40,368 nucleotides of DNA from Deltaproteobacteria bacterium (GTDB lineage: Bacteria > Myxococcota > JACRCW01). Every line of letters starts with the position of its first letter. Within the stretch, counting starts at the first letter, position 1. Made by a program: the position numbers and the translations under genes. The stretch lies in NCBI GenBank assembly GCA_016218805.1, contig JACRCW010000083.1:1-40368 (forward strand), read 5' to 3'. The notes below the pieces were generated by a model. It worked only from the letters and a program-made list of their open reading frames with translations. It was not told the origin of the DNA and did not search any database. Shown one piece after another: positions 18,364-34,247 of the stretch.

Positions 18364-18440
18364 CGGGGCGTAGCTCAGCCTGGTAGAGCGCTTGGTTCGG
18401 GTCCAAGAGGTCGTAGGTTCAAATCCTGTCGCCCCGACCA
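18364..18440 (+). tRNA. tRNA-Pro (anticodon CGG)
   Basis: 77 nt; acceptor stem CGGGGCG/CGCCCCG plus ACCA; D-arm GCTCAGCCTGGTAGAGC; anticodon arm CTTGG-TTCGGGT-CCAAG; T-loop GGTTCAAATCC. Confidence 0.97.
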
Positions 18441-18442
18441 GT

Positions 18443-18493
18443 CCACCGCCGCGCTTTCACGGAGAAATCCGGGGGGCGCGGCGGTGGTGTTTG
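18443..18493 (+). terminator. GC-rich hairpin directly after tRNA-Pro
   Basis: CCACCGCCGCGC (18443-18454) pairs with GCGCGGCGGTGG (18476-18487), with an inner CGGA-GAAA-TCCG hairpin, followed by TGTTTG. Confidence 0.6.
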
Positions 18494-18509
18494 AGGCGTC
18501 CGCGAGACT

Positions 18510-18536
18510 CCGCAGCGCCGGCGCAGCGATTGGCCC
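18510..18536. repeat. 27-bp direct repeat, copy 1
   Basis: ccgcagcgccggcgcagcgattggccc, identical to 19746-19772. Confidence 0.9.
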
Positions 18537-18763
18537 GGGATCGATGCCCACCACGGCGGCGAGCGAGGCGGACTCCTCGGATCGGGGGTCGATGGACGGC
18601 AGGCGGTTCACCGCCGTGCGCAGGTCGCTCAACTCGAGGTGCCCGTAGACCTGCGACGTGAACCGCGGATCGGTGTGGCGCAGCACGCGGTGGACGGTGG
18701 CGATCGAGCTCGCGCCCCTCGCGCGCGGCTGCTGCGCGAAAAGGACGTGCACCGCAGGCGGCT

Positions 18764-19048
18764 TCACAATCGCCGCGGCCACCGTCGAGCGCCGTGGAGC
18801 ACGCGCGCGATCTCCACGCGGTCTGCGCCCACGCGATAGGCCACCACGTACGGCAAGCCGGACACCACAAGCTCGCGCGTGCCCTTGGCCCGGCCGGGGC
18901 GACCCATCTTGGGAAACTCCATCTGCCCTTCGATGGCTGACAGCACGCGGTCCACGGTCTCCACCGCCGCGGCCGGGTTGTGTTGCTGGATGTATCCGAG
19001 GATGTCGTCGAGATCGTTGAGTGCGGTCTCGGCGAGAATCAGCCGCAA
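18764..19048 (-). CDS. Type II toxin, RelE/ParE family
   Basis: ALNDLDDILGYI...FPKMGRPGRAKGTRELVVSGLPYVVAYRV...EIARVLHGARRWP; overlaps the antitoxin stop. Confidence 0.92.
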   Translation of the reverse strand: MRLILAETALNDLDDILGYIQQHNPAAAVETVDRVLSAIEGQMEFPKMGRPGRAKGTRELVVSGLPYVVAYRVGADRVEIARVLHGARRWPRRL

Positions 19049-19320
19049 CGCGGTTTCTCCGCCGGGCGACCCGCCGCCTTGTTGCGCAGGTAGGCCTTCG
19101 CCTCGTCCCAGTTCACCGTGCGTCCTTCATCCGCGGCGCGCAGGCCTTCGTTCACCGCCGCGACCCACGCGTCGTCGTCCAGGAACGCCACCACGGCTTC
19201 CGCGGCCAGCTCCGCCTCGCTGCAGTGCTCCTCGGCAGCGCGTGCCCGCAGGCGCTCCAGCGCCTCCGCTGGCAGGTGAAGCGTCAGTTCCTTCGAGGTT
19301 GCTGGGACGGGCTGGCTCAT
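19039..19320 (-). CDS. CopG/RHH-type antitoxin
   Basis: N-terminal LTLHLPAEALERLRARA RHH pattern and acidic EGLRAADEGRTV segment; lies directly upstream of the toxin. Confidence 0.85.
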   Translation of the reverse strand: MSQPVPATSKELTLHLPAEALERLRARAAEEHCSEAELAAEAVVAFLDDDAWVAAVNEGLRAADEGRTVNWDEAKAYLRNKAAGRPAEKPRCG

Positions 19321-19559
19321 ACCCGGAGTGTACCACCGTCCCAGGCTCCTTTCAGCCGGCCGTGGCTGGAGACGCCCGCTCGTCGACAGCATCGGCGTCC
19401 ATCGCGTCGCCGCCCCTTCTTGCAGCGCGCGGCTCCCGGTCGGCAGCGGCTATCGCTCGTCCTCCGATTCGTGGCCCTCGGTGCGGGCGCCGACCGCAAC
19501 CGGACGAGGGTCTTGCCGCGGCGACTGCATCGGAGGGCGCTGCGGCCCACGAACGCCGC

Positions 19560-19715
19560 TTGCGCCGCTGAACAGCGCGAGATCCTCCTCGCGCACGCGG
19601 ATCGCGTTGAGAACGCGGACGTGCGGCAGGCGCCCCTCCTCGCAGAGGCGTAGACGGTGGCCTTGCAGACGCCCTGGCGGGCGGCGACCGCAGGCACCGA
19701 GAGGAGGGACGCGCC
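19560..19715 (-). pseudogene. Excisionase-like HTH (HTH_17) with a 1-bp frameshift
   Basis: LLSVPAVAARQGVCKATVY in one frame continues as LCEEGRLPHVRVLNAIRVREEDL in another; one base is missing near 19647. Confidence 0.75.
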
Positions 19716-19745
19716 CCTGCCCGGGACGAGTTTGAGCGCCGCGGG

Positions 19746-19772
19746 CCGCAGCGCCGGCGCAGCGATTGGCCC
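19746..19772. repeat. 27-bp direct repeat, copy 2
   Basis: Identical to 18510-18536. Confidence 0.9.
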
Positions 19773-19914
19773 CTGATTGGGTGCGACCAGGCGGGACCCG
19801 TGCGAAGGGGTGGGCGGCCGATGCTCAACGATCTCGACGGGTTGAGAGTCAGTGCCACGACGTGCAAACGCCTGTTGGGCGCGGGATGCGTGTCCACGCG
19901 GACGAGGACGCAAC

Positions 19915-24093: not shown

Positions 24094-24990
24094 TCAGGCC
24101 GCCACCGCCGCCCGCTCCGTCAACGCGGCCCACAGCGGCGCACCCGCGCAGGCCAGGGACAGCGCCCGTGCGCCCAACTCCGCGGGGACTGCCGGGTGGT
24201 CGCGGTTCACGCGCACCAGGTGGGCGTCCGCGTGGCGGTGGGCAATCTCTTCGGCCGGCCACCGGACCACCGGCGGCGTGTTGAACCCCGAGCCGACGTC
24301 AAGAACGAGCAGCCGTCCAGACGCCGCCTGGTCCAGCCACGCGCGCAGGCGGTGCGCCTGTGGCTGGTACGGTTTGTCAATGAACCAGTCACCCCCGCGC
24401 ACGTTGAGCATTGCGCGCCCACCACAGCGCGGGCACCGCGGTACCAGCGTGGCGTCCACCAGTTCCTCCGTTGCCAGGTCCACGCACGGCAAGGCCGCGC
24501 GCACCCACTGCTCCGCAGGCCACGTGGCGTCGTCATGGCACCGCGCCAGGCATTGCAGGCGGCTGTAGCTTCCCTGCCGTGTCCAGATGCGGCTTGGGTC
24601 AAACCCGCTGCGCTCAAACAGGTCATCCGCGTTGCTGGTGAGCACAAACCGGTCACGGTGCGCGGTGAGTGCGCACAGCTGCAGGTACGGCGTGGGGTTT
24701 GGTGGTGGCTGGAAGCGCAGTTCTTGAAGGTGACGGGCCAGGTGGCCCCATTGCACCGCCTCACTTGGCCAGGGGTAGCCGAACACGTGGTAACGGCAAC
24801 GCGGCCCGCGCTCCGCCATCCGCGGGTAGCGCCGCCCGAACTGGCGCTCATCCGTGTAGTCAAACCCGGCATCCACGCTCATGCCGGCGCCCGCCGTGAT
24901 GAGGACGTGGTCCGCCTCCGTCAGCAGCCGGTCCACCCGCTCCACCACCTCCCGCGAAAGGGCCGTGCCCTTGGTGCGTCGTTCACGCAT
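24094..24990 (-). CDS. Class M sirtuin (SirTM, NAD-dependent protein ADP-ribosyltransferase)
   Basis: ITAGAGMS, FVLTSNAD, TRQGSYSRLQC (Gln at the catalytic-His position), CxxxC/CPRC Zn finger, LDVGSGFNTPPVVRWP. Confidence 0.88.
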   Translation of the reverse strand: MRERRTKGTALSREVVERVDRLLTEADHVLITAGAGMSVDAGFDYTDERQFGRRYPRMAERGPRCRYHVFGYPWPSEAVQWGHLARHLQELRFQPPPNPTPYLQLCALTAHRDRFVLTSNADDLFERSGFDPSRIWTRQGSYSRLQCLARCHDDATWPAEQWVRAALPCVDLATEELVDATLVPRCPRCGGRAMLNVRGGDWFIDKPYQPQAHRLRAWLDQAASGRLLVLDVGSGFNTPPVVRWPAEEIAHRHADAHLVRVNRDHPAVPAELGARALSLACAGAPLWAALTERAAVAA

Positions 24991-25795
24991 GACATGCCTC
25001 CTCGGCGGCCACCGCGTAGGTGGCACGTTCGTGCTCGGTGAAGGTGACCAGGACCACGTGGTGCGGGGCCGCGTGGTCTTGGAGGTAGGAGCGGACCGCC
25101 GCCAACGCCGCCGGCGCCGCGCTGGCCACCGGGTAGCCAAACACCCCGGTGGAAATCCCGCAGAATGCGACTCGGGTCCCCAGCCCCGCCGCCGCCGCAA
25201 GACACGACGCGTAACAACGCCAAAGCAGTTCCGCGTCACCGGCCGTGGGGTCCCGTCCGGCAAGGGCGGGGCCCACGGTGTGCACCACGTGCCGCGCTGG
25301 CAGGAAGTAACCGCGGGTGACGGTGGCGGTGCCACACGGCTCCGGCCGCCCGCGCGCAACCATGATCCGGCCGCACTCCTCACGGAGGCGCGGCCCGGCC
25401 GCCGTGTGGATGGCGTTGTCCACGCATCCGTGCCGGGGCTGATAACAGCCGGTCAGCCCGGAATTGGCCGCATTGACCACGGCATCCACCTCCAGCGCGG
25501 TGATGTCCCCGTGCCAGAGACTGACCCGTGACGCCCACCCCGCCTCACCCAGGCGCGCCAGGTCAGCGGCCCGCGTAGCGGTGCGCCCGGCGGATTCGGC
25601 CGCCCACAGCGCGTCCAGCAGCGGCCAGGCTTCCGCCGGTATGGCGTCCCACGCCGTGCGCGTCAGTACGGTGCGCAACCGCTCCCGCGCCGCCGCGGCG
25701 GGCAGGACTTGGACGTCTCCCAACACGCGGCGGATTCGGCTGACGAGCGATTCGGCGGTGACGGTGGGGAGCGGGGCGGGCGGCATCGGGATCAT
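24983..25795 (-). CDS. Zn-dependent macrodomain protein-ADP-ribose hydrolase
   Basis: WHGDIT, VNAANSGLTGCYQPRHGCVDNAIH (C-x4-H-x-C zinc loop), HTVGP, ISTGVFGYP; overlaps the sirtuin start. Confidence 0.92.
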   Translation of the reverse strand: MIPMPPAPLPTVTAESLVSRIRRVLGDVQVLPAAAARERLRTVLTRTAWDAIPAEAWPLLDALWAAESAGRTATRAADLARLGEAGWASRVSLWHGDITALEVDAVVNAANSGLTGCYQPRHGCVDNAIHTAAGPRLREECGRIMVARGRPEPCGTATVTRGYFLPARHVVHTVGPALAGRDPTAGDAELLWRCYASCLAAAAGLGTRVAFCGISTGVFGYPVASAAPAALAAVRSYLQDHAAPHHVVLVTFTEHERATYAVAAEEACHA

Positions 25796-26862: not shown

Positions 26863-27819
26863 TCAACACGCATCCAGCACCGCTAAGTTCCGCTCCGGGC
26901 GGCGGGGAACGGATGCGGGAATGCACTGGGCCACGCATTCCTCCAGCGCGCGCAGGATCGCGAGCTTCCAGTGATCGCGTCGATAGACGATGCTGATTTC
27001 CCGCGCCGGCACCGGCGCGCGGAACGGGCGGACGTGCGCATCACGCTCTTCCCGGGGCAGCCCCTGCGCCATCAGCGCAGGAATGAGCGTGTGACCCTGG
27101 CTGCCCCGCACCAGGCGGCGCAGCGTGTCCAGGCTGCCGCTTTCAAAACGCACGTTTCCCGGCACCACATCACCCTGACCGGGCACCGCGCAGAAGTTCA
27201 GCACCTGGTCCTTGAAACAGTGACCGTCCTGCAACAGCCACATCTCGGCGGGATCCAGCTGGTCCCGCGTGATGCGGTCGTGACGCAGCAGCGCGTGCCC
27301 GGCAGCAAAGTACGCAAGGAAAGGCTCGTAATACAGCGGGTGCACCTTCAGCCCGGTGGCCGCCACCGGCGTGGCCAGCACGGCGCCGTCAAGGCGGTCC
27401 CTGGCCAGCTCGTCCAGGATGGTCTCCGTCTTGGCCTCTTCAATCAGCAGGCGCACCCGCGGATGCGCGCGCGTGAAAGGCTTGAGGAGGTACGGCAGCA
27501 GGTGGCTGGCCACCGTGGGGATGATGGCAAGTTTGAAGTCACCGCTGGCGGACCCGTCCGGTGCCTGTTGGGCCACCTGCAGGAGGCGCTCGTATTCGCG
27601 CAGGACCGTGCGTGCCTGCTCAAGGAACTGGCGGCCCTCCGGCGTCACCAGGATGGGTTTCCGCGCGCGGTCAAACAGGACCAGGCGGACGTCGTCCTCC
27701 AGTTTCTGGAGTTGCTGGGAAAGCGTGGGCTGACTCACGTGGCAGGCCAATGCCGCCTTGCCAAAGTGCCGCTGTTCGTCGACGGCGAGGGCGTACTGGA
27801 GCTGGAGGAGCGTGGGCAT
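26863..27819 (-). CDS. oxyR: Hydrogen-peroxide sensor OxyR (LysR family)
   Basis: HFGKAALACHVSQPTLS HTH; LLQDGHCFKDQVLNFC containing both redox Cys; divergent from ahpC. Confidence 0.92.
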   Translation of the reverse strand: MPTLLQLQYALAVDEQRHFGKAALACHVSQPTLSQQLQKLEDDVRLVLFDRARKPILVTPEGRQFLEQARTVLREYERLLQVAQQAPDGSASGDFKLAIIPTVASHLLPYLLKPFTRAHPRVRLLIEEAKTETILDELARDRLDGAVLATPVAATGLKVHPLYYEPFLAYFAAGHALLRHDRITRDQLDPAEMWLLQDGHCFKDQVLNFCAVPGQGDVVPGNVRFESGSLDTLRRLVRGSQGHTLIPALMAQGLPREERDAHVRPFRAPVPAREISIVYRRDHWKLAILRALEECVAQCIPASVPRRPERNLAVLDAC

Positions 27820-27914: not shown

Positions 27915-28481
27915 ATGAACACGCTCATCAACACTTCCATCCCCGATTTCAAGGTGCAGGCCTATCACGACGACGCATTCCGCACGGTCACCCGGGAGGA
28001 CCTGCGCGGGAAATGGTCCATCTTCTTCTTCTACCCGGCGGACTTCACGTTCGTGTGCCCGACGGAGCTGGGCGACATGGCGGACAAGTACGAAGCGTTC
28101 AAGAAGCTGGGCGTGGAGGTGTATTCCGTCAGCACCGACACGCACTTCACGCACAAGGCCTGGCATGACGCGTCGGAGACCATCAAGAAGATCCGCTACC
28201 CCATGCTTGCGGACCCCACGGGCCACCTGAGCCGCGCGTTGGGGGTCTACATTGAAGAGGAGGGGCTCGCGTACCGCGGCACGTTTGTGGTTGACCCGGA
28301 GGGGCGCATCAAGATTGCCGAGGTCAACGACAACGGCATTGGCCGCAACGCCGACGAACTGCTGCGGAAGGTGCAGGCCGCGCAGTTTGTGGCGTCCCAT
28401 CCCAACGAGGTGTGCCCGGCCCGGTGGACGCCCGGCGCCAAGACGCTGAAGCCGGGGTTGGACCTGGTGGGAAAGATCTGA
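27915..28481 (+). CDS. ahpC: Alkyl hydroperoxide reductase C (2-Cys peroxiredoxin)
   Basis: FYPADFTFVCPTE, EVCPA, C-terminal LDLVGKI; AGGAGG RBS. Confidence 0.97.
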   Translation: MNTLINTSIPDFKVQAYHDDAFRTVTREDLRGKWSIFFFYPADFTFVCPTELGDMADKYEAFKKLGVEVYSVSTDTHFTHKAWHDASETIKKIRYPMLADPTGHLSRALGVYIEEEGLAYRGTFVVDPEGRIKIAEVNDNGIGRNADELLRKVQAAQFVASHPNEVCPARWTPGAKTLKPGLDLVGKI

Positions 28482-28507
28482 ACGCACGGAACACGGAGGT
28501 GGACGCC

Positions 28508-30058
28508 ATGTTGGATGACGGCATCAAAGAACAACTCGCGGAGGTGTTGGGGCGCCTGGAGGAGGAGGTGGCGCTGCGCGTGCCGGAGAGCGCGCATTCC
28601 GAGCACGGTGAGTTGCTGGCCATGCTCCACGACGTGGCGTCCACCTCCGCGAAGGTGCGCGTGGACCAGATCACCGGCGGGGGGACCGACGCGCCGGTGG
28701 TGGTCCTGCACGGGCCGGCGAGCAATGGCGCCATCCGGTTCCGCGGTGTTCCCGGTGGTCACGAGTTCTCATCGTTGATCCTGGGCATCCTGTGCGCCGG
28801 CGGAAAAGGCCGACTTCCGGACCCGGGCATCCTGGGACGCATCCGGGCACTGAAGGGGCCCATCCGGCTGCGCACCTACGTGTCCTTGTCCTGCGAGAAC
28901 TGCCCGGACGTGGTGCAAGCCTTGAACCTGATGGCTACGGTGCACCCGGACTTCCACCACGAAACCGTGGACGGCGCGGTGGCCCGGTCCGAGGTGGAAG
29001 CGTTGGCCATCCAGGGTGTGCCGTCCGTGATTCACCAGGACACACTGCTCCACGCGGGCAAGGCGTCGCTCGCGGAGCTGCTCGCGGTCATGGAGCGCTC
29101 GTTCGGCACCACCGCCGGCCCTGCCGCGGCGGACCTCGGGCTGTTTGACGTTGTCGTCGTTGGAGGTGGCCCCGCCGGGGCATCCTCCGCAATCTACAGT
29201 TCACGCAAGGGACTGCGGACCGCCATGGTGGCGGAGCGGCTGGGCGGCCAACTGCGGGAAACGCGCGGAATAGAAAACATGATTTCCGTGGCTTACACGG
29301 AGGGCGCACAGCTGGCGGCTCAGCTGTCCGAACACGTGGCGCGTTACCCGGTGGAGGTGTTTGAGCACCGCCGCGTCTCACGCATTACCGGCGACACGGA
29401 GAAACGCATTGAATTGGAGAGCGGGGAAACCCTGCGTGCCCGGACGGTGATTGTCGCAACGGGCGCGCGCTGGCGGCAACTCGGCATTCCGGGAGAGCAG
29501 GAGTACATCGGGCGGGGCGTCGCGTTCTGTGCACACTGCGACGGGCCCTTCTACAAGGGCAAGAACGTCGTCGTCGTGGGCGGCGGCAATTCCGGGGTGG
29601 AAGCGGCGGTGGACCTCGCGGGCATCGCGCGGGAGGTGACACTGGTGGAATTCGCCGGGCAGTTGAGGGCGGACAGCGTGCTGGTACAGAAACTGACGGA
29701 ATTGCCCAACACCCGCATCATCACCCACGCCCGGAGCACCCAGGTGTTGGGTGACGGCAAGCAGGTGGTGGGCCTGGAATACGAGGACCGCCAGACCAGC
29801 GTGCGAACCACGCTCGCCGCGGACGGGGTGTTCGTGCAGATCGGGTTGTTGCCCAATTCCCAGTTCCTCAAGGATGACGTCCAGCTGGCGCCCACGGGGG
29901 AAATCATGGTGGACGGGTGCGGCCGCACCTCCGTACCCGGTATCTACGCCGCCGGGGACGTGACCACGATTCCGTTCAAACAGATCGTCATGGCGATGGG
30001 GGACGGCGCACGCGCGGCACTGGGCGCCTTTGAGGACCGGTTGCGCGCGACCCCGTGA
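28508..30058 (+). CDS. ahpF: Alkyl hydroperoxide reductase F
   Basis: PGGHEFSSL, SLSCENCPDVVQALN, GGGPAG, CAHCDGP, GGGNSG, YAAGDVT motifs. Confidence 0.96.
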   Translation: MLDDGIKEQLAEVLGRLEEEVALRVPESAHSEHGELLAMLHDVASTSAKVRVDQITGGGTDAPVVVLHGPASNGAIRFRGVPGGHEFSSLILGILCAGGKGRLPDPGILGRIRALKGPIRLRTYVSLSCENCPDVVQALNLMATVHPDFHHETVDGAVARSEVEALAIQGVPSVIHQDTLLHAGKASLAELLAVMERSFGTTAGPAAADLGLFDVVVVGGGPAGASSAIYSSRKGLRTAMVAERLGGQLRETRGIENMISVAYTEGAQLAAQLSEHVARYPVEVFEHRRVSRITGDTEKRIELESGETLRARTVIVATGARWRQLGIPGEQEYIGRGVAFCAHCDGPFYKGKNVVVVGGGNSGVEAAVDLAGIAREVTLVEFAGQLRADSVLVQKLTELPNTRIITHARSTQVLGDGKQVVGLEYEDRQTSVRTTLAADGVFVQIGLLPNSQFLKDDVQLAPTGEIMVDGCGRTSVPGIYAAGDVTTIPFKQIVMAMGDGARAALGAFEDRLRATP

Positions 30059-30125
30059 CGCCGGGCCGCGCACACCGGCAGCAAGCCGCCACGGTCCACA
30101 TGGTTTCCCGCGCGTGCCGTGGCCA

Positions 30126-30173
30126 TTGACGGGGCCGCGGACCGCGCCTATGTTTCGATACATGTCGAAACAT
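30126..30173 (+). promoter_or_regulatory. Sigma70 promoter with overlapping palindromic ArsR-type operator
   Basis: TTGACG (30126-30131)-N17-TATGTT (30149-30154); perfect inverted repeat ATGTTTCGA-N6-TCGAAACAT (30150-30173). Confidence 0.8.
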
Positions 30174-30536
30174 CGAACCATGCCCCTGGACCGGCTGGCG
30201 GCCATGTTCAAGGCGCTGTCTCACCCGCAGCGCCTGAAGATCATCCAGAAGCTGTGCGGGTGCTGCGCACCGGGGGCCGCGTGCACCACCCGGGCAGACG
30301 GGTTGCGCTGTTGCGCCGGGGACCTGGGCGCGGACCTGGGGTTGGCCGCATCCACGGTGTCCCATCACCTCAAGGAACTGCGCCAGTGCGGCATCATGGA
30401 GGTGCAGCGGTGCGGACAGCGGGTGGAGTGCTGGATCAACCCCGCGGCGCTTGGCCAGCTGACCGCGTTCCTGGCCGGGGCGGTCTCCATGCACCCCGCA
30501 GCGACGGGAGGCGGCCATGGTCGTTCCAAGCGGTAG
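30162..30536 (+). CDS. Cys-rich ArsR/SmtB-family regulator upstream of hgcA
   Basis: MFKALSHPQRLKI, CAGDLG, LAASTVSHHLKELRQCG; 9 Cys. Start at 30162 or 30180. Confidence 0.9.
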   Translation: MSKHRTMPLDRLAAMFKALSHPQRLKIIQKLCGCCAPGAACTTRADGLRCCAGDLGADLGLAASTVSHHLKELRQCGIMEVQRCGQRVECWINPAALGQLTAFLAGAVSMHPAATGGGHGRSKR

Positions 30537-31587
30537 CGCGCTCAGCACGCACTTCACGGACGGCGCGGTGGACGCGGCGGGCGTCCAGGTGCCGCGCGTG
30601 CGCACGGCGCTGACGTGGAGGGACCACTGGGGCACGCTGCTGGCGCGCTGGGCCATCCACCGCATGGACTACCGCGTGGCCCCGGGGTTGTACGCAGCGG
30701 GAACGCCGGATGCGACGTCACCGGTGCTCGTCTCAGCCAACTACAAGATGAGCTTTGACTGCGTCCGGTCGGCGCTCGCGGGCCGCCACGCGTGGCTCCT
30801 TGTCCTGGACACGGCGGGCATCAATGTGTGGTGTGCCGCGGGCAAGGGCACGTTTGGCACGGACGAGTTGGTGCGGCGGGTGGCGGATACCGGGCTGGAC
30901 CGCGTGGTGTCCCACCGCAAACTGGTGGTGCCGCAATTGGGTGCACCCGGCGTGGCCGCGCATGAGGTGCGCCAGCGTTGCGGGTTCCGAGTCATGTACG
31001 GACCTGTTCGGGCGGAGGACCTGGCCGCGTTCCTGGACGCCGGGATGAAGGCGTCGCCGGAGATGCGGCAGGTGCGCTTCAACCTGCGCGACCGGATGAC
31101 GTTGAGCCCCGTGGAGTTGATGCAGGGATACAAGGTCGTCCTGCCGGTTGCCGCGGTATTGCTGCTGCTCGGCGGCCTGCGGTCCAGCGGGTGGTCCTGG
31201 GACGCGGCCCGCCAGACGGGCGGATTGGCGGCGCTGCTGCTCTTTGCTGCTTTTACCGGTGCCGCAGTGCTGGGTCCCGCGCTGTTGCCTTGGCTTCCCG
31301 GCCGGGCCTTTTCGGTCAAAGGCGCAATGCTGGGCGTGGCGTTTGCTGCGCTGCTGCCGCTGACGGGTGGGGCAGGTTCCCCGTGGCACACGGCCGCGTG
31401 GGCGTTGCTCATCCCAGCCCTGGCCAGCTTTGCGCTGATGAACTTCACGGGTGCCACCACGTTCACCTCGCTCAGCGGCGTGCTGGCGGAGATGCGGCGG
31501 GCCGTGCCCGTGCAGGTGACCGCGGCCGTGGTGGGCCTGGGCTTGTGGGTCGCGGGTCTTTGGCTGGATGGAGGGCCGACCACGTGA
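30517..31587 (+). CDS. hgcA: Mercury methylation corrinoid protein HgcA
   Basis: PGLYAAG, SPVLVSANYKMSFD, cap helix GINVWCAAGKGTFGT, PQLGAPGV, YGPVRAEDL, plus C-terminal TM domain ending MNFTGATTFTSLSGVLAEM. Confidence 0.97.
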   Translation: MVVPSGSALSTHFTDGAVDAAGVQVPRVRTALTWRDHWGTLLARWAIHRMDYRVAPGLYAAGTPDATSPVLVSANYKMSFDCVRSALAGRHAWLLVLDTAGINVWCAAGKGTFGTDELVRRVADTGLDRVVSHRKLVVPQLGAPGVAAHEVRQRCGFRVMYGPVRAEDLAAFLDAGMKASPEMRQVRFNLRDRMTLSPVELMQGYKVVLPVAAVLLLLGGLRSSGWSWDAARQTGGLAALLLFAAFTGAAVLGPALLPWLPGRAFSVKGAMLGVAFAALLPLTGGAGSPWHTAAWALLIPALASFALMNFTGATTFTSLSGVLAEMRRAVPVQVTAAVVGLGLWVAGLWLDGGPTT

Positions 31588-31877
31588 GGTACATCGAGGA
31601 CGTTGTCACGCTGGAACTGGACGTGGACCGGTGCAATGGCTGCCGCATGTGCCTGCGCGTGTGCCCCCACGCCGTGTTCCAGATGAGCGGCAAACGCGCC
31701 GTCCTGCATGACCGCGGGGCATGCATGGAGTGCGGCGCCTGCGCCCGCAACTGCGAGCAGGGCGCCATCCGCGTTCGCGCGGGCGTGGGTTGCGCCGCCG
31801 GCGTCTTGGCGGGCCTGGTGGGCGGCAGCGAACCCAGTTGCGGCTGCTCCGTCGACAAACCATCCGGGTGTTGCTGA
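31584..31877 (+). CDS. hgcB: Mercury methylation 2[4Fe-4S] ferredoxin HgcB
   Basis: GTGA overlap with the hgcA stop; CNGCRMCLRVCPHAVF, CMECGACARNC, GVGCA and C-terminal CGC...CC. Confidence 0.96.
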   Translation: MRYIEDVVTLELDVDRCNGCRMCLRVCPHAVFQMSGKRAVLHDRGACMECGACARNCEQGAIRVRAGVGCAAGVLAGLVGGSEPSCGCSVDKPSGCC

Positions 31878-32124
31878 GCGGCCCGACTGGGGGGGCGAGA
31901 TCCCGCGGTTCAACGCCGCCGCCGGAAACCCGCCAGAAACGCAAGGCCGGCGCAAATCGGCAAGATTCCTCCAGACAGAACACCGCTGGCGGCGCACCCG
32001 CAGCCCGCCCATGGTCGCTCGTCGTGAGAATTGTCCGGATACCCCCGCGCGAACGGTTGGGCCTCCATGGGGACCAGGATCGCTCCCTTCCGCGCCGCCC
32101 GCATCGTCGGAGGTAGCCCGGGAA

Positions 32125-33300
32125 TCAGAACGGCATGGACGTGTCACACGGGTGCCAGACGGCGAACGGGTCCAGACCGCGCCCGTTGGGGGTCAAATCG
32201 GCCTGTGTGGTGTGCTTCAGCGTGCGCCGGTTGTTCCAGAGTTCAAAGCCCATGAACGAAGGAAACCGCCAGGCCATCTCAACGTCCGCCGCCTGCCACG
32301 TGCCGCCGTTGATGAACGTGGACAGCGCACCTCTGGGATGTGCCGCGTAGCTGATGGCACCAAGGCGGGTAACCAGGTCATTGGCCCGGGCCACGGACGG
32401 CATGAACGCGCCAAGGCACTCCATCGGCCAGGCGCCCCCTGACGCGGAGGATTCCACGTATCCGCCGCCGAACTCGAGCATATGGATGGTCTTCTCGTCG
32501 GCCGATTTCACGTTGATTTCTTCACCGGTGACGATGACAAACGGCCGGCGCGCAGCCACCCAGGACATCGCATCTTCGGCGTCGCTGGTCATGGCGTGCC
32601 AGGGGTCGTTGAAATCACCCTGCCCGGCGGAGTGGTCACGCACCACACAAGACAGGCCACCGCCGGTGGCTTCACAGTGCGTGAACCGCGCCACGCGCGA
32701 CGACGTCTTCTCGAACCCCGGTGCCGAATAGCAGGGATCATCCAAGTCACAGGAGTGATTCGTGGTGATTGCCCATCCAGCCCCAGGGCTTCGCCGGCGT
32801 TGGCCATGCTCCGGTGCGGCAGGCCAAACTCCGCCCAGTTGTTGGTGTACAGCGTGTGCGAGTGCGCGTCTCCGGCGTACCACGCCCCGAATTGGCCACG
32901 CCCCTGGGGGAGCGGCGCCTCCCCACGTGGACGCGCAGGCGGACGACGTAGTGCGGGTTGCGCTCGCAGCCGTCCGCATGGAGATCCACCGGAAATCCAG
33001 GTCCCTCCCCGTGGCGTCAGCACCCCAGACCCGCCGGGGCGTGATGAGTTCGCCATCAGCCGCCATCCCTTCATTGCCGGTGAAGCGGCGGAGCTCCGCC
33101 ACAAACATGCCCGCGGTCTCCTCCGCTGCCGCCAGGTCCACGCCGCCAAAGTTCCGGGACGCAACGTTGACCCAGTCGTTCTTCAACACCCGGATGCGGG
33201 CGGAGCGGAGGCGCAGCTCGCGGCAGCGGTCGGCATCCGCCGCAATGATGGAGAATGGAATGAGATCCTGTTCGCGCGGGTCCTTCCCGGTGAGGGCGCC
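32125..33300 (-). pseudogene. Frameshifted, truncated PHP-fold (CehA/McbA-like) metallohydrolase
   Basis: WYAGDAHSHT...GLD in one frame; WAITTNHSCD, GEEI, IHML, YAAHP, FELWN in another; apparent 1-bp deletions near 32990, 32922 and 32776; no terminal GxSDxH motif. Confidence 0.7.
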
Positions 33301-33436
33301 ATGCCACGCCAGTGACGCAAGCCGCGCAGCGCCGCAGCACTCCGGGCCGCGCGCCAGCAACAACTTCAACTGCTGCACGAGCATGGCGGCCGCCCGGGCG
33401 CCGGATGCCTATTCTGCGATCCGAAGGGAGGTTGTC

Positions 33437-33745
33437 ATGAGTTCGCGCATCAGAGGTGCCGTAGGGGTCTTCGCGGCCATCCTGCTGCCGCCGGTCTCAG
33501 CATTCGCGCAGGCATCACCAGACCCGTTTTCCATGGGCGGCCTGGTCGGTGGCGCCATGTGGTCGTCCGTCGCGCTGGCGGGCACACTGTTGTTGGTGGC
33601 CGCCGCCGTCGTGGCGGTGGTGGCGGTGCCGTGGTTGAGGAAAGGCGGTCGCAGCCCGTGGGAGCAACGCCGCGCGCGGCGAATGGACAACACCGTCTGG
33701 ACACCGGAGCAGCGCCTGGCCGCAAGAGCCCGCGCGAAGCCGTGA
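33437..33745 (+). CDS. Small membrane protein with signal peptide
   Basis: GGAGG RBS; signal peptide ending AFA; one TM helix; basic tail. Confidence 0.55.
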   Translation: MSSRIRGAVGVFAAILLPPVSAFAQASPDPFSMGGLVGGAMWSSVALAGTLLLVAAAVVAVVAVPWLRKGGRSPWEQRRARRMDNTVWTPEQRLAARARAKP

Positions 33746-33854
33746 CGTCAGGGCGGACTTATCCGGTGCGGCCCAATCCGCCCGCACCGTGAGCCGGGCG
33801 ACCGTTCGCCCGCGAGTGACGCGCTTGTGATCCGGCTGGATAGAAGACGGCTCG

Positions 33855-34247
33855 TCAGACGCCGTGTGCTCGCTGCGGAAGGCCGTCGGTGATGTCGTAG
33901 TAGTCGCCCTTGTCGGCAGCGTGGACGTGGATGCACGTCCGCGTGCCGGTAGGTCCGTCAAAGGCCCCCATGGCAATCCCTATCCAGTCCTTGTCCACGT
34001 GGTCCCAGAACAGCGATGAGCCGCACGTGGCACAGAACCCGCGGCGCACCCGCTCCGTGAAGAACCAGGACACGTGTTCGGCGCCCCGCACGGTGACCGC
34101 GGTCCGGGGCACGTCTGTGGAAACAAAGTAATGGCCGGAGAATTTCCGGCATTCGCGGCAGTGGCAGGCATCGGGCGGGGCAAGCTCACCCGTGACCGCC
34201 AACGTCACCTTGCCGCACAAGCAGGACCCTTGGAGCGTCGCGTTCAT
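33855..34247 (-). CDS. GFA/CENP-V family zinc protein
   Basis: GSCLCGKV, CHCRECRK, RGFCATCGSSLFW motifs. Confidence 0.93.
   Translation of the reverse strand: MNATLQGSCLCGKVTLAVTGELAPPDACHCRECRKFSGHYFVSTDVPRTAVTVRGAEHVSWFFTERVRRGFCATCGSSLFWDHVDKDWIGIAMGAFDGPTGTRTCIHVHAADKGDYYDITDGLPQRAHGV

Follow-up and report, generated by a model that had tools for sequence, protein, structure and literature searches.

A candidate mercury-methylation operon, arsR-hgcA-hgcB, in the genome of an uncultured groundwater member of the Myxococcota

The window considered here, a stretch of 40,368 nucleotides (nt), is the whole of one contig (C38; GenBank JACRCW010000083.1) of a 6.43-Mb genome deposited as Deltaproteobacteria bacterium (GCA_016218805.1), which comprises 170 contigs and is 92.4% complete and 1.2% contaminated. 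At 30126..31877 it carries arsR, hgcA, and hgcB, read in a first-pass annotation as a complete mercury-methylation operon; the three genes are indeed found there, with both HgcA and HgcB above curated family cut-offs. The operon is likely to be a self-contained, horizontally acquired unit of a microaerophilic or facultatively anaerobic groundwater member of the Myxococcota, which would make its host a candidate methylmercury producer. The features of the locus are as follows (aa, amino acids):

30126-30154, plus strand: sigma-70-type promoter, with the -35 box TTGACG (30126-30131), a 17-nt spacer, and the -10 box TATGTT (30149-30154)
30150-30173, no strand assigned: 9-6-9 inverted repeat ATGTTTCGA-tacATG-TCGAAACAT, the putative ArsR operator
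30162-30536, plus strand: arsR, an ArsR/SmtB-family repressor of 124 aa (PF01022, 40 bits, cut-off 22)
30517-31587, plus strand: hgcA, a corrinoid protein of 356 aa with a cap helix and a five-helix membrane domain
31584-31877, plus strand: hgcB, a 2x[4Fe-4S] ferredoxin of 97 aa with a GTG start

As far as sequence can tell, the window holds a genuine and intact hgcAB pair. In profile scans HgcA scores 439.9 bits against NF040863 (cut-off 275) and stays below the cut-offs of the CFeSP gamma model (69.6 against 306) and of the HgcAB-fusion (HgcAB-like) model (195.2 against 285), while HgcB scores 115.5 bits against NF040864 (cut-off 99). The cap-helix consensus of HgcA proteins, N(V/I)WCA(A/G)GK, is represented by NVWCAAGK at residues 103-110 (nt 30823-30846), with Cys106 in its middle, and a simple Kyte-Doolittle hydropathy plot places five hydrophobic segments in residues 207-350, so that the cap helix and the transmembrane domain reported in the first-pass annotation are both present. 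HgcB contains the ferredoxin motifs CNGCRMCLRVC and CMECGACARNC (C17/20/23/27 and C47/50/53/57), the second ending in C-E and not C-P; Cys70, the conserved cysteine about 12 residues past the second motif, is the equivalent of Cys73 in strain ND132, and the tail cysteines Cys86/88/96/97 end in a terminal Cys-Cys, again as first read. The reading frames overlap as had been noted, by 20 nt at arsR/hgcA and by 4 nt (GTGA) at hgcA/hgcB, hgcB lying directly 3' of hgcA, and GGAGG precedes both hgcA and hgcB. Cys93 of ND132 HgcA has a Co-ligating role (PMC7305189), and the residues essential in ND132 HgcA and HgcB (PMC7305189, PMC11588087) are matched by the proteins described here. The closest database relatives show only 59-67% identity. 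In a quick tree of 62 rows, from which loci L016, L095, and L098 were dropped by an open reading frame (ORF) filter, the window HgcA groups with HgcA, far from the separate long branches formed by six CFeSP rows and by three rows with a variant NVWCAAGG cap, so it is no CFeSP paralogue, and no CFeSP was found in the host genome.

The contig belongs to the host genome. It ranks 18th of 100 large contigs in closeness to the genome tetranucleotide mean, and the G+C content at third codon positions (GC3) of arsR, hgcA, and hgcB lies in the 12th-18th percentile of the genome. Four sequencing runs contain the window, all labelled groundwater metagenome and all from one study, with X1 possibly the source; run X4 contains a small share (0.09) and was left out of the habitat inference. 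One X1 contig, identical to the window over 28167-33909, has a depth of 24, against 20-26 for its neighbours, and the depth is flat over 20.4-40 kb. In run X2 the hgcA and hgcA-hgcB pieces have the same low depth as the other X2 pieces, and run X3 contributes a piece reaching from the end of ahpF across arsR. The read-coverage check called for in the first-pass annotation gave no sign of a chimera, and a chimeric contig is unlikely. The one other genome of the host's family in the collection, G001, matches the window in six blocks of 1-3 kb between 6.6 and 23.1 kb, at 65-70% identity; beyond 23.1 kb only short matches occur, which places hgcAB in a variable region. A reading of the locus as an artefact, whether through chimerism, misbinning, or a CFeSP paralogue incapable of methylation, could draw on this lack of a long match over 23-40 kb, on the absence of any listed read-derived piece spanning the whole window (28163-28167 is unbridged in the listed rows), and on the deepest run being perhaps the source sample. 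Set against the flat depth, the evenness of the pieces in a second run, the typical tetranucleotide profile and GC3, the distance of HgcA from the CFeSP rows, and a host genome free of CFeSP, such an explanation is highly improbable. At the contig end (40228-40368) the depth rises about threefold (75.6 vs about 24), as would be expected if the assembly stopped at a repeated element.

The left end of the operon given in the first-pass annotation, 30126, is the first base of the -35 box. TTGACG-17-TATGTT is the sole sigma-70-like site in 27.7-32.3 kb; 0.5 such sites are expected by chance, which makes the promoter call weak by itself. An in-frame ATG at 30162 sits 7 nt past the -10 box and gives the N-terminus MSKHRT, fitting the pattern MS[NK]xR of this arsR family, and it is most likely the arsR start (124 aa), in place of position 30180 used in the database's 118-aa call. 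The predicted transcription start is the A of this ATG, and the arsR-hgcAB transcript is probably leaderless. The palindrome at 30150-30173 spans both the -10 box and the arsR start codon, and its core, TTCGA-N6-TCGAA, occurs once in the 6.43-Mb host genome.

The same arrangement recurs in relatives. Among the 80 best of 513 confirmed metagenome loci of this ArsR family, which yielded 74 distinct readable promoters, the -10 box matches in at least four of six positions at exactly the window's offset in 66, the -35 box matches in at least five of six in 68, the exact TTCGA-N6-TCGAA is present in 62, and a Shine-Dalgarno-like word ahead of the arsR start is present in none; the right half-site was built into the pattern used to find the starts, so only the counts for the left half, the two boxes, and the Shine-Dalgarno word are independent. 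In a pairing test of 90 loci, from which 6 were removed and 81 distinct ones obtained with the start set by M-S, the half-sites pair on average at 6.8 of 9 positions in the window's register vs 1.5-3.3 when slid. No paper describing a TTCGA-N6-TCGAA operator or a leaderless arsR-hgcAB start was found in a search that did not extend to regulon databases, journals behind subscription, or supplements on bioRxiv, any of which may contain one. Two further observations concern the operator. A third TCGAA-like repeat lies nine bases past the right half-site in relatives (L145-L227; arsR +3 to +17, codons xR[NKT]) and could serve as an additional binding site within the arsR reading frame. In the more distant ArsR loci L229, L231, and L232 (genomes G396, G017, and G008) the same or a similar TTCGA-N6-TCGAA-type palindrome stands upstream of a leadered start and not on the start codon, which suggests a shift of the operator to the ATG within a single subfamily.

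ArsR carries the cysteines C34, C35, C41, C50, and C51 in a loop and Cys90 on the wing strand; C51 and C90 are invariant in all 47 aligned ArsRs and C35 is conserved in 43 of the 47. The structure model is a winged helix with a mean pLDDT (predicted local distance difference test) of 76, in which C34-C51 belong to the loop joining helices 2 and 3, modelled with low confidence (residues 36-46 below 50), and C90 is on the wing strand.

Judged by gene order, this repressor subfamily normally controls the arsenite methyltransferase gene arsM and sometimes hgcA. Of 77 distinct loci surveyed with a 2.5-kb flank, 25 with less than 700 nt downstream were set aside, and in the 52 scored the downstream gene, its identity having been confirmed, is arsM in 37, hgcA in 8, and acr3/arsC in 1; arsM and hgcA never occur together within 2.5 kb (0/52). 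The window ArsR falls within a 7-row clade of hgcA-linked repressors only (99/96), nested among ArsRs heading arsM (58-row tree, 107 columns), and the tree requires at least four changes of cargo. The approximately unbiased test does not reject a tree that unites all 12 hgcA-linked ArsRs (p-AU, its p value, 0.15), which makes repeated cargo swapping no more than a possibility. As side observations, a small Cys-rich membrane protein and a DsbD-like protein are often encoded between this ArsR and hgcA or acr3 (L147, L152, L177, L184, L215, L227), and C_GCAxxG_C_C proteins are encoded near arsM in relatives' loci.

Links between hgcAB and arsenic regulators have been described before: in ND132 the arsR ahead of hgcA responds to arsenic and S-adenosylhomocysteine (10.1101/2022.10.17.512643), an arsR in this position accompanies lower hgcA expression in a lake (PMC11984097) and precedes hgcA in 14 of 31 confirmed methylators (PMC10349881), and hgcAB neighbourhoods with arsR and arsM have been noted (PMC7438021). 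It is conceivable that the selected function of hgcAB is the handling of arsenic or another metalloid, that hgcAB fills the arsM slot of the operon, and that mercury methylation is a side reaction, a tentative reading which is compatible with methylmercury production by the host. It would account for one ArsR subfamily and operator preceding either arsM or hgcA and never both, and for the nesting of the hgcA-linked repressors among the arsM-linked ones; the arsM enzyme and HgcAB are both S-adenosylmethionine (SAM)-dependent methyltransferases (PMC11588087), and hgcAB of ND132 responds to arsenic. It is countered by the presence of arsM in a separate ars operon of the host, by the single hgcA-linked clade that the tree test leaves standing, and by the lack of any report of arsenic methylation by HgcAB in the passages of the HgcAB literature consulted. 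The linkage to arsM bears on why hgcAB exists and on what induces it.

In the phylum, HgcA exceeds its cut-off in 12 of 401 genomes, the host included. It is absent from all 172 genomes of family f11, which was represented in the RpoB tree by a single member that branches with Myxococcaceae, and from the same-family genome G001, which is 96% complete; the HgcA of G002, a genome of the same class, is only 51% identical to that of the window. The window HgcA belongs to a 16-row group (SH-aLRT, Shimodaira-Hasegawa-like approximate likelihood ratio test, 94), which also holds the HgcA of the Myxococcota genome G132 and proteins labelled Deltaproteobacteria, Riflebacteria, Krumholzibacteria, and Thermodesulfobacteriota, and a single clade for ten HgcAs of the phylum is rejected (p-AU 9e-6). 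Being patchy and polyphyletic, hgcAB was therefore, in all appearance, acquired horizontally. An IS66 tnpB is found about 1.9 kb away from the corresponding arsR-hgcAB unit of G132. A comparison by eye, indirect as evidence, shows that 14 or more of the 119 ArsR homologues listed have a longest contig of exactly the same length as that of a listed HgcA homologue. The unit appears to behave as a mobile cassette. Among the window proteins scanned, a subset of the ORFs, none was recognised as an integrase, and no repeats flanking the operon were found. The classmate G002 carries dsrA, CobS, and hgcAB of its own (contigs C81 and C108), apparently a separate acquisition, and is probably a sulfate-reducing methylator of the same small class, as its gene content suggests. 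HgcA-like frames of 390-833 aa that remain under the HgcA cut-off were seen in other Myxococcota (L098-L101, L042; genomes G396, G189, G304, G151, and G038), three of them with the variant NVWCAAGG cap and an HgcB-like neighbour or fusion.

Three genes lie upstream of the operon and outside it:

26863-27819, minus strand: oxyR-like gene, with OxyR as the best match, below cut-off; divergent from ahpC
27915-28481, plus strand: ahpC, the ahpC/ahpF pair being over the cut-offs of TIGR03137/TIGR03140
about 28508-30058, plus strand: ahpF, whose stop lies 67 nt before the -35 box

Co-transcription of hgcAB with ahpCF under OxyR, with a role in peroxide or redox stress, is suggested by the common strand, the 67-nt distance, and the absence of a terminator-like site between ahpF and arsR. 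It is very unlikely all the same, since arsR-hgcAB has a conserved promoter and operator-like site of its own, none of 53 other loci has ahpC or ahpF beside hgcA-type genes, and the whole 23-40 kb segment is a variable region with little match to G001. A conserved ahpCF-hgcAB link was rejected on the count over those 53 loci. Elsewhere in the window, adjoining genes for a sirtuin-like protein and a macrodomain (protein-ADP-ribose hydrolase-like) protein at 24094-25795 on the minus strand, near oxyR-ahpCF, resemble an ADP-ribosylation stress module, and at 18364-19777 a tRNA-Pro is followed by a parDE-type pair between 32-nt direct repeats (18510-18541 and 19746-19777), a small insertion.

The host belongs to the Myxococcota, to a small uncultured class outside Myxococcia, as placed by a marker sequence. 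The named neighbours of its RpoB, at 75-77% identity, are Anaeromyxobacter oryzae, Anaeromyxobacteraceae, Myxococcaceae, Myxococcales, and unassigned Deltaproteobacteria. In a single-marker RpoB tree (31 rows, LG+G4; 11 rows of a preliminary tree left out) the host joins Anaeromyxobacter oryzae and Myxococcaceae in a clade with 100/100 support, none of the six rows labelled Desulfobacterota falling inside it, and the host is outside the 100/100 clade of Myxococcia. A lone 'Myxococcia' label in the preliminary tree proved to be a matter of NCBI name mapping, the row grouping with Desulfomonile. Besides G001, the collection holds two more genomes of the class. The gliding protein GltC scores 545.6 (cut-off 450), and GltE and GltG are just under their cut-offs. 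The attribution to Myxococcota made in the first-pass annotation is thereby upheld, and its picture of a largely aerobic, predatory phylum misfits this genome, which lies outside Myxococcia, and the family grouping with Myxococcaceae has no HgcA. Low-affinity aa3 oxidase, catalase, superoxide dismutase (SOD), and a large content of polyketide synthases and nonribosomal peptide synthetases (NRPS) are traits of Myxococcia; crude ketosynthase and NRPS motifs had no match in the 92%-complete host genome. The host is not an aerobic predator of the Myxococcus type.

Its gene content is best read as that of a microaerophile or facultative anaerobe of redox interfaces. The terminal-oxidase search recommended earlier gave three COX1 matches: a cbb3 CcoNO fusion over the cut-off, a protein closest to ba3-type structures (E about 1e-44, vs 1e-6 or weaker for A-type), and a weak match neighbouring the ba3-like subunit. 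Cytochrome bd and Fe/Mn-SOD, present in all four relatives, were not found in the host genome; nor were haem catalase, KatG, rubrerythrin, and NrfA, nor, by tblastn, Cu/Zn-SOD and an A-type oxidase. dsrA, present in G002, was likewise not found in the host. Present are OxyR-AhpCF, a clade II NosZ with nosD and napGH-like genes, NapA, PFOR, and an HdrA-Mvh-like hydrogenase cluster scoring below the archaeal equivalog cut-offs. Also present are MtrC/OmcA- and DmsE-like cytochromes, a Psr/Phs-like molybdoenzyme, and, in the gene calls made for this work, 36 proteins with at least three CxxCH motifs (maximum 32). The gene set covers the respiration of N2O and nitrate and probably that of metals. 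Family scans did not bear out the motif candidates for PFL, CODH, SOR, and FprA.

Haem synthesis points the other way. The haem route comprises HemE, the O2-dependent HemF (392.8, cut-off 297), a HemY-like protein, and HemH; an E. coli HemN query finds only HemW in the host (best match 26.6%), and none of eight radical-SAM proteins scanned, from 25 motif candidates, reaches the AhbC/AhbD cut-off. HemF without a HemN having been found, the cell probably meets traces of oxygen. The ribonucleotide reductase is the B12-dependent NrdJ; no class III enzyme was found in the host, and the class I beta subunit gave only a sub-cut-off match. The suggestion of a possibly oxygen-tolerant methylator thus holds in a microaerobic sense (cbb3, ba3, HemF without HemN, OxyR-AhpCF) and goes no further, as no A-type or bd oxidase, catalase, KatG, SOD, or rubrerythrin was found and a full toolkit for anaerobic respiration is present. 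Among the 12 hgcA-positive genomes of the phylum, nine have a COX1-family match, with A-type motifs in four, cbb3 motifs in three, and NO reductase only in one (by motifs, covering 16 of 26 matches); the phylum includes hgcA carriers better equipped for oxygen than the host.

Several clusters stand beside this respiratory inventory. On contig C42 (23900-36000; L131, L300) the Psr/Phs-like cluster comprises a 3-haem cytochrome, a 1011-aa catalytic subunit, an Fe-S subunit, a TorD-type chaperone, and a MOSC protein, and continues on the same strand into an adenylate-cyclase-domain gene and then arsR-arsD/CMD-arsA-acr3-arsC-arsM; the molybdoenzyme could be an oxyanion reductase tied to arsenic resistance, with the ArrA model far below its cut-off. 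Four giant multihaem cytochromes have 28-32 CxxCH motifs in about 800 aa (C54 26683-29253, C89 23994-26336, C36 6043-8553 and 11098-13602), no NCBIfam family being assigned to the three scanned, and a 2576-aa protein on C165 has 19 haem motifs and an M36-peptidase-like region.

Corrinoid is probably obtained by uptake and not by synthesis, since CobS was not found in the host genome and a cobalamin riboswitch precedes a TonB-type receptor gene; this answers the search for corrinoid supply that had been proposed. MetH, NrdJ, and MetK are present. On C33 (22946-29982; L280) genes for a bifunctional homocysteine methyltransferase/methylenetetrahydrofolate reductase, an ArsR-methyltransferase fusion (SahR-like), and metH are clustered, and an AhcY motif had no match in the host genome. 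MerB was found in none of six genomes, with controls equally silent, so that this search is uninformative.

In the mechanism favoured here, RNA polymerase would start at the arsR ATG, giving a leaderless mRNA, and ArsR dimers would bind TTCGA-N6-TCGAA over the -10 box and the start codon and repress their own operon, until a thiophilic metal(loid), most likely As(III), engaged the Cys-rich loop and Cys90 and released ArsR; these steps are modelled on relatives. Translation of hgcA and hgcB would be coupled. HgcB, supplied with low-potential electrons (PFOR and HdrA-Mvh are present), would reduce the cobalamin of HgcA to Co(I), SAM would methylate Co(I)-HgcA, and the HgcB cysteines would deliver Hg(II), yielding methylmercury as a co-metabolic product; methylation of Co(I)-HgcA by SAM and the handling of Hg by the HgcB cysteines are described in PMC11588087 and PMC7305189. 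Activity would be expected under anoxic or nearly anoxic conditions, during respiration of N2O, nitrate, or metals and with O2 held low by the high-affinity oxidases, and not under fully oxic ones. In soil, methylmercury formation was inhibited by N2O, which is able to oxidise Co(I) (PMC10100821), and NosZ could by that token protect HgcA here; this remains speculation, as NosZ occurs in only three of the 12 carriers and also in the hgcA-negative sister G001, and an association of NosZ with hgcA is unsupported for the same reason.

Several points weigh against this mechanism and the lifestyle proposed for the host. Every absence from the host comes from a 92%-complete genome. HemF without HemN or AhbC/D, together with the missing class III reductase, argues for a requirement for some O2, which is not easily reconciled with the O2-sensitive chemistry of Co(I). 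Covariation between the palindrome halves is small (6.81 vs 6.53 shuffled), inflated by six distant rows and by relatedness, and is too weak for reliance. No terminator-like site separates the operon from ahpF, and the host's own arsR-arsD-arsA-acr3-arsC-arsM operon on C42 uses another ArsR and lacks this operator. Finally, ArsR2 of ND132 is a four-Cys protein of the pattern CxC...CxC (C47/C49 and C86/C88), and the window ArsR has no CxC pairs, so that As(III) is no more than a candidate inducer.

The haem route raises the further possibility of a methylator at work while respiring oxygen, which would need traces of O2, keep its cytoplasm near-anoxic by means of cbb3/ba3 and AhpCF, and methylate mercury at oxic-anoxic interfaces; it is in this form that the idea of the first-pass annotation can be defended. 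HemF well over its cut-off with no HemN or AhbC/D above theirs in a cell with 36 multihaem proteins, the two oxidases, AhpCF adjoining the operon, and A-type or cbb3 motifs in seven of the 12 hgcA-positive genomes of the phylum would fit it. Yet it seems somewhat unlikely: catalase, KatG, SOD, rubrerythrin, and the A-type and bd oxidases were not found, the O2-sensitive PFOR and HdrA-Mvh are present, HemN may sit in the missing 8% of the genome, HgcAB is described as O2-sensitive (PMC11588087), and aerobic methylation is stated to be unconfirmed in PMC12874090. Bolder still, and improbable in our view, would be an O2-requiring microaerophile with HemF-fed cytochromes that runs HgcAB at the oxic-anoxic fringes of aquifers, its Co(I) shielded by oxidases, AhpCF, and clade II NosZ and its operon arsenic-switched through the leaderless operator shared with arsM; were this true, the operator would be a sequence marker for arsenic-inducible methylmercury production and a metalloid the selected substrate of HgcAB.

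Myxococcota carrying hgcA have been published (PMC12953829, PMC12874090, PMC9494745), being dominant among the methylators of a suboxic layer in PMC12953829, and PMC7438021 mentions Myxococcales genomes with hgcA. PMC8163782 describes terminal oxidases in genomes carrying hgcA and speaks of 'greater oxygen tolerance', and high-redox respiratory methylators (PMC10504345) and a cbb3-bearing facultative hgcA lineage, Nitrospinota UBA7883 (PMC10349881), have been reported. Thus hgcAB in Myxococcota, the arsR-hgcAB layout, and oxidase-bearing hgcAB genomes are known already, and 'unusual', the word of the first-pass annotation, overstates the case, with Myxococcota hgcA and oxidase-bearing hgcA genomes both in print (PMC12953829, PMC12874090, PMC9494745, PMC8163782, PMC10349881). 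The matter of methylmercury formation under suboxic or nitrate-reducing conditions has yet to be settled, with no aerobic methylator confirmed (PMC12874090, PMC10504345), and the genome described here adds a near-complete candidate methylator of redox-interface lifestyle from a barely sampled Myxococcota class. The parts deserving tests are the HemF-only haem route and the conserved operator common to arsM operons; the operator, a precise predicted binding and start site for an hgcAB-linked ArsR, is the more transferable result.

Compared with known systems, HgcA and HgcB show every sequence-testable defining feature of their families (NF040863/NF040864; PMC7305189, PMC11588087). The arsR2-hgcA-hgcB locus of ND132, Pseudodesulfovibrio mercurii (10.1101/2022.10.17.512643), has the same gene order, with an ArsR/SmtB gene directly upstream and no other ars genes; in both repressors cysteines lie on the loop after helix 2 and on the wing strand, and C51 and C90 here are 39 residues apart, as are C47-C86 and C49-C88 there by published position. 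ND132 is a sulfate reducer, whereas the host described here appears to be a respirer of nitrate, N2O, and metals with high-affinity oxidases and without dsrA, and a promoter and putative operator are identified here, words that the main text of the ND132 paper does not contain. The ArsR-arsM operons (NF008823) share with the window the repressor subfamily, the leaderless promoter geometry, and TTCGA-N6-TCGAA; their cargo is arsM and here it is hgcAB. The published hgcA genomes of Myxococcota and Myxococcales (PMC12953829, PMC12874090, PMC9494745, PMC7438021) are of the same phylum as the host but come from marine, brackish, and permafrost settings and include sulfate reducers, while the host is from groundwater, lacks a detected dsrA, and belongs to a class of three other genomes in the collection. 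Closest in lifestyle are the high-redox or facultative hgcA carriers (PMC10504345; PMC8163782; UBA7883, PMC10349881), which combine hgcAB with nitrate or metal respiration or cbb3, as here, and for which a wider O2 tolerance has been proposed; they belong to other phyla, and to their set of traits the present host adds a clade II NosZ and an apparently HemF-only haem route.

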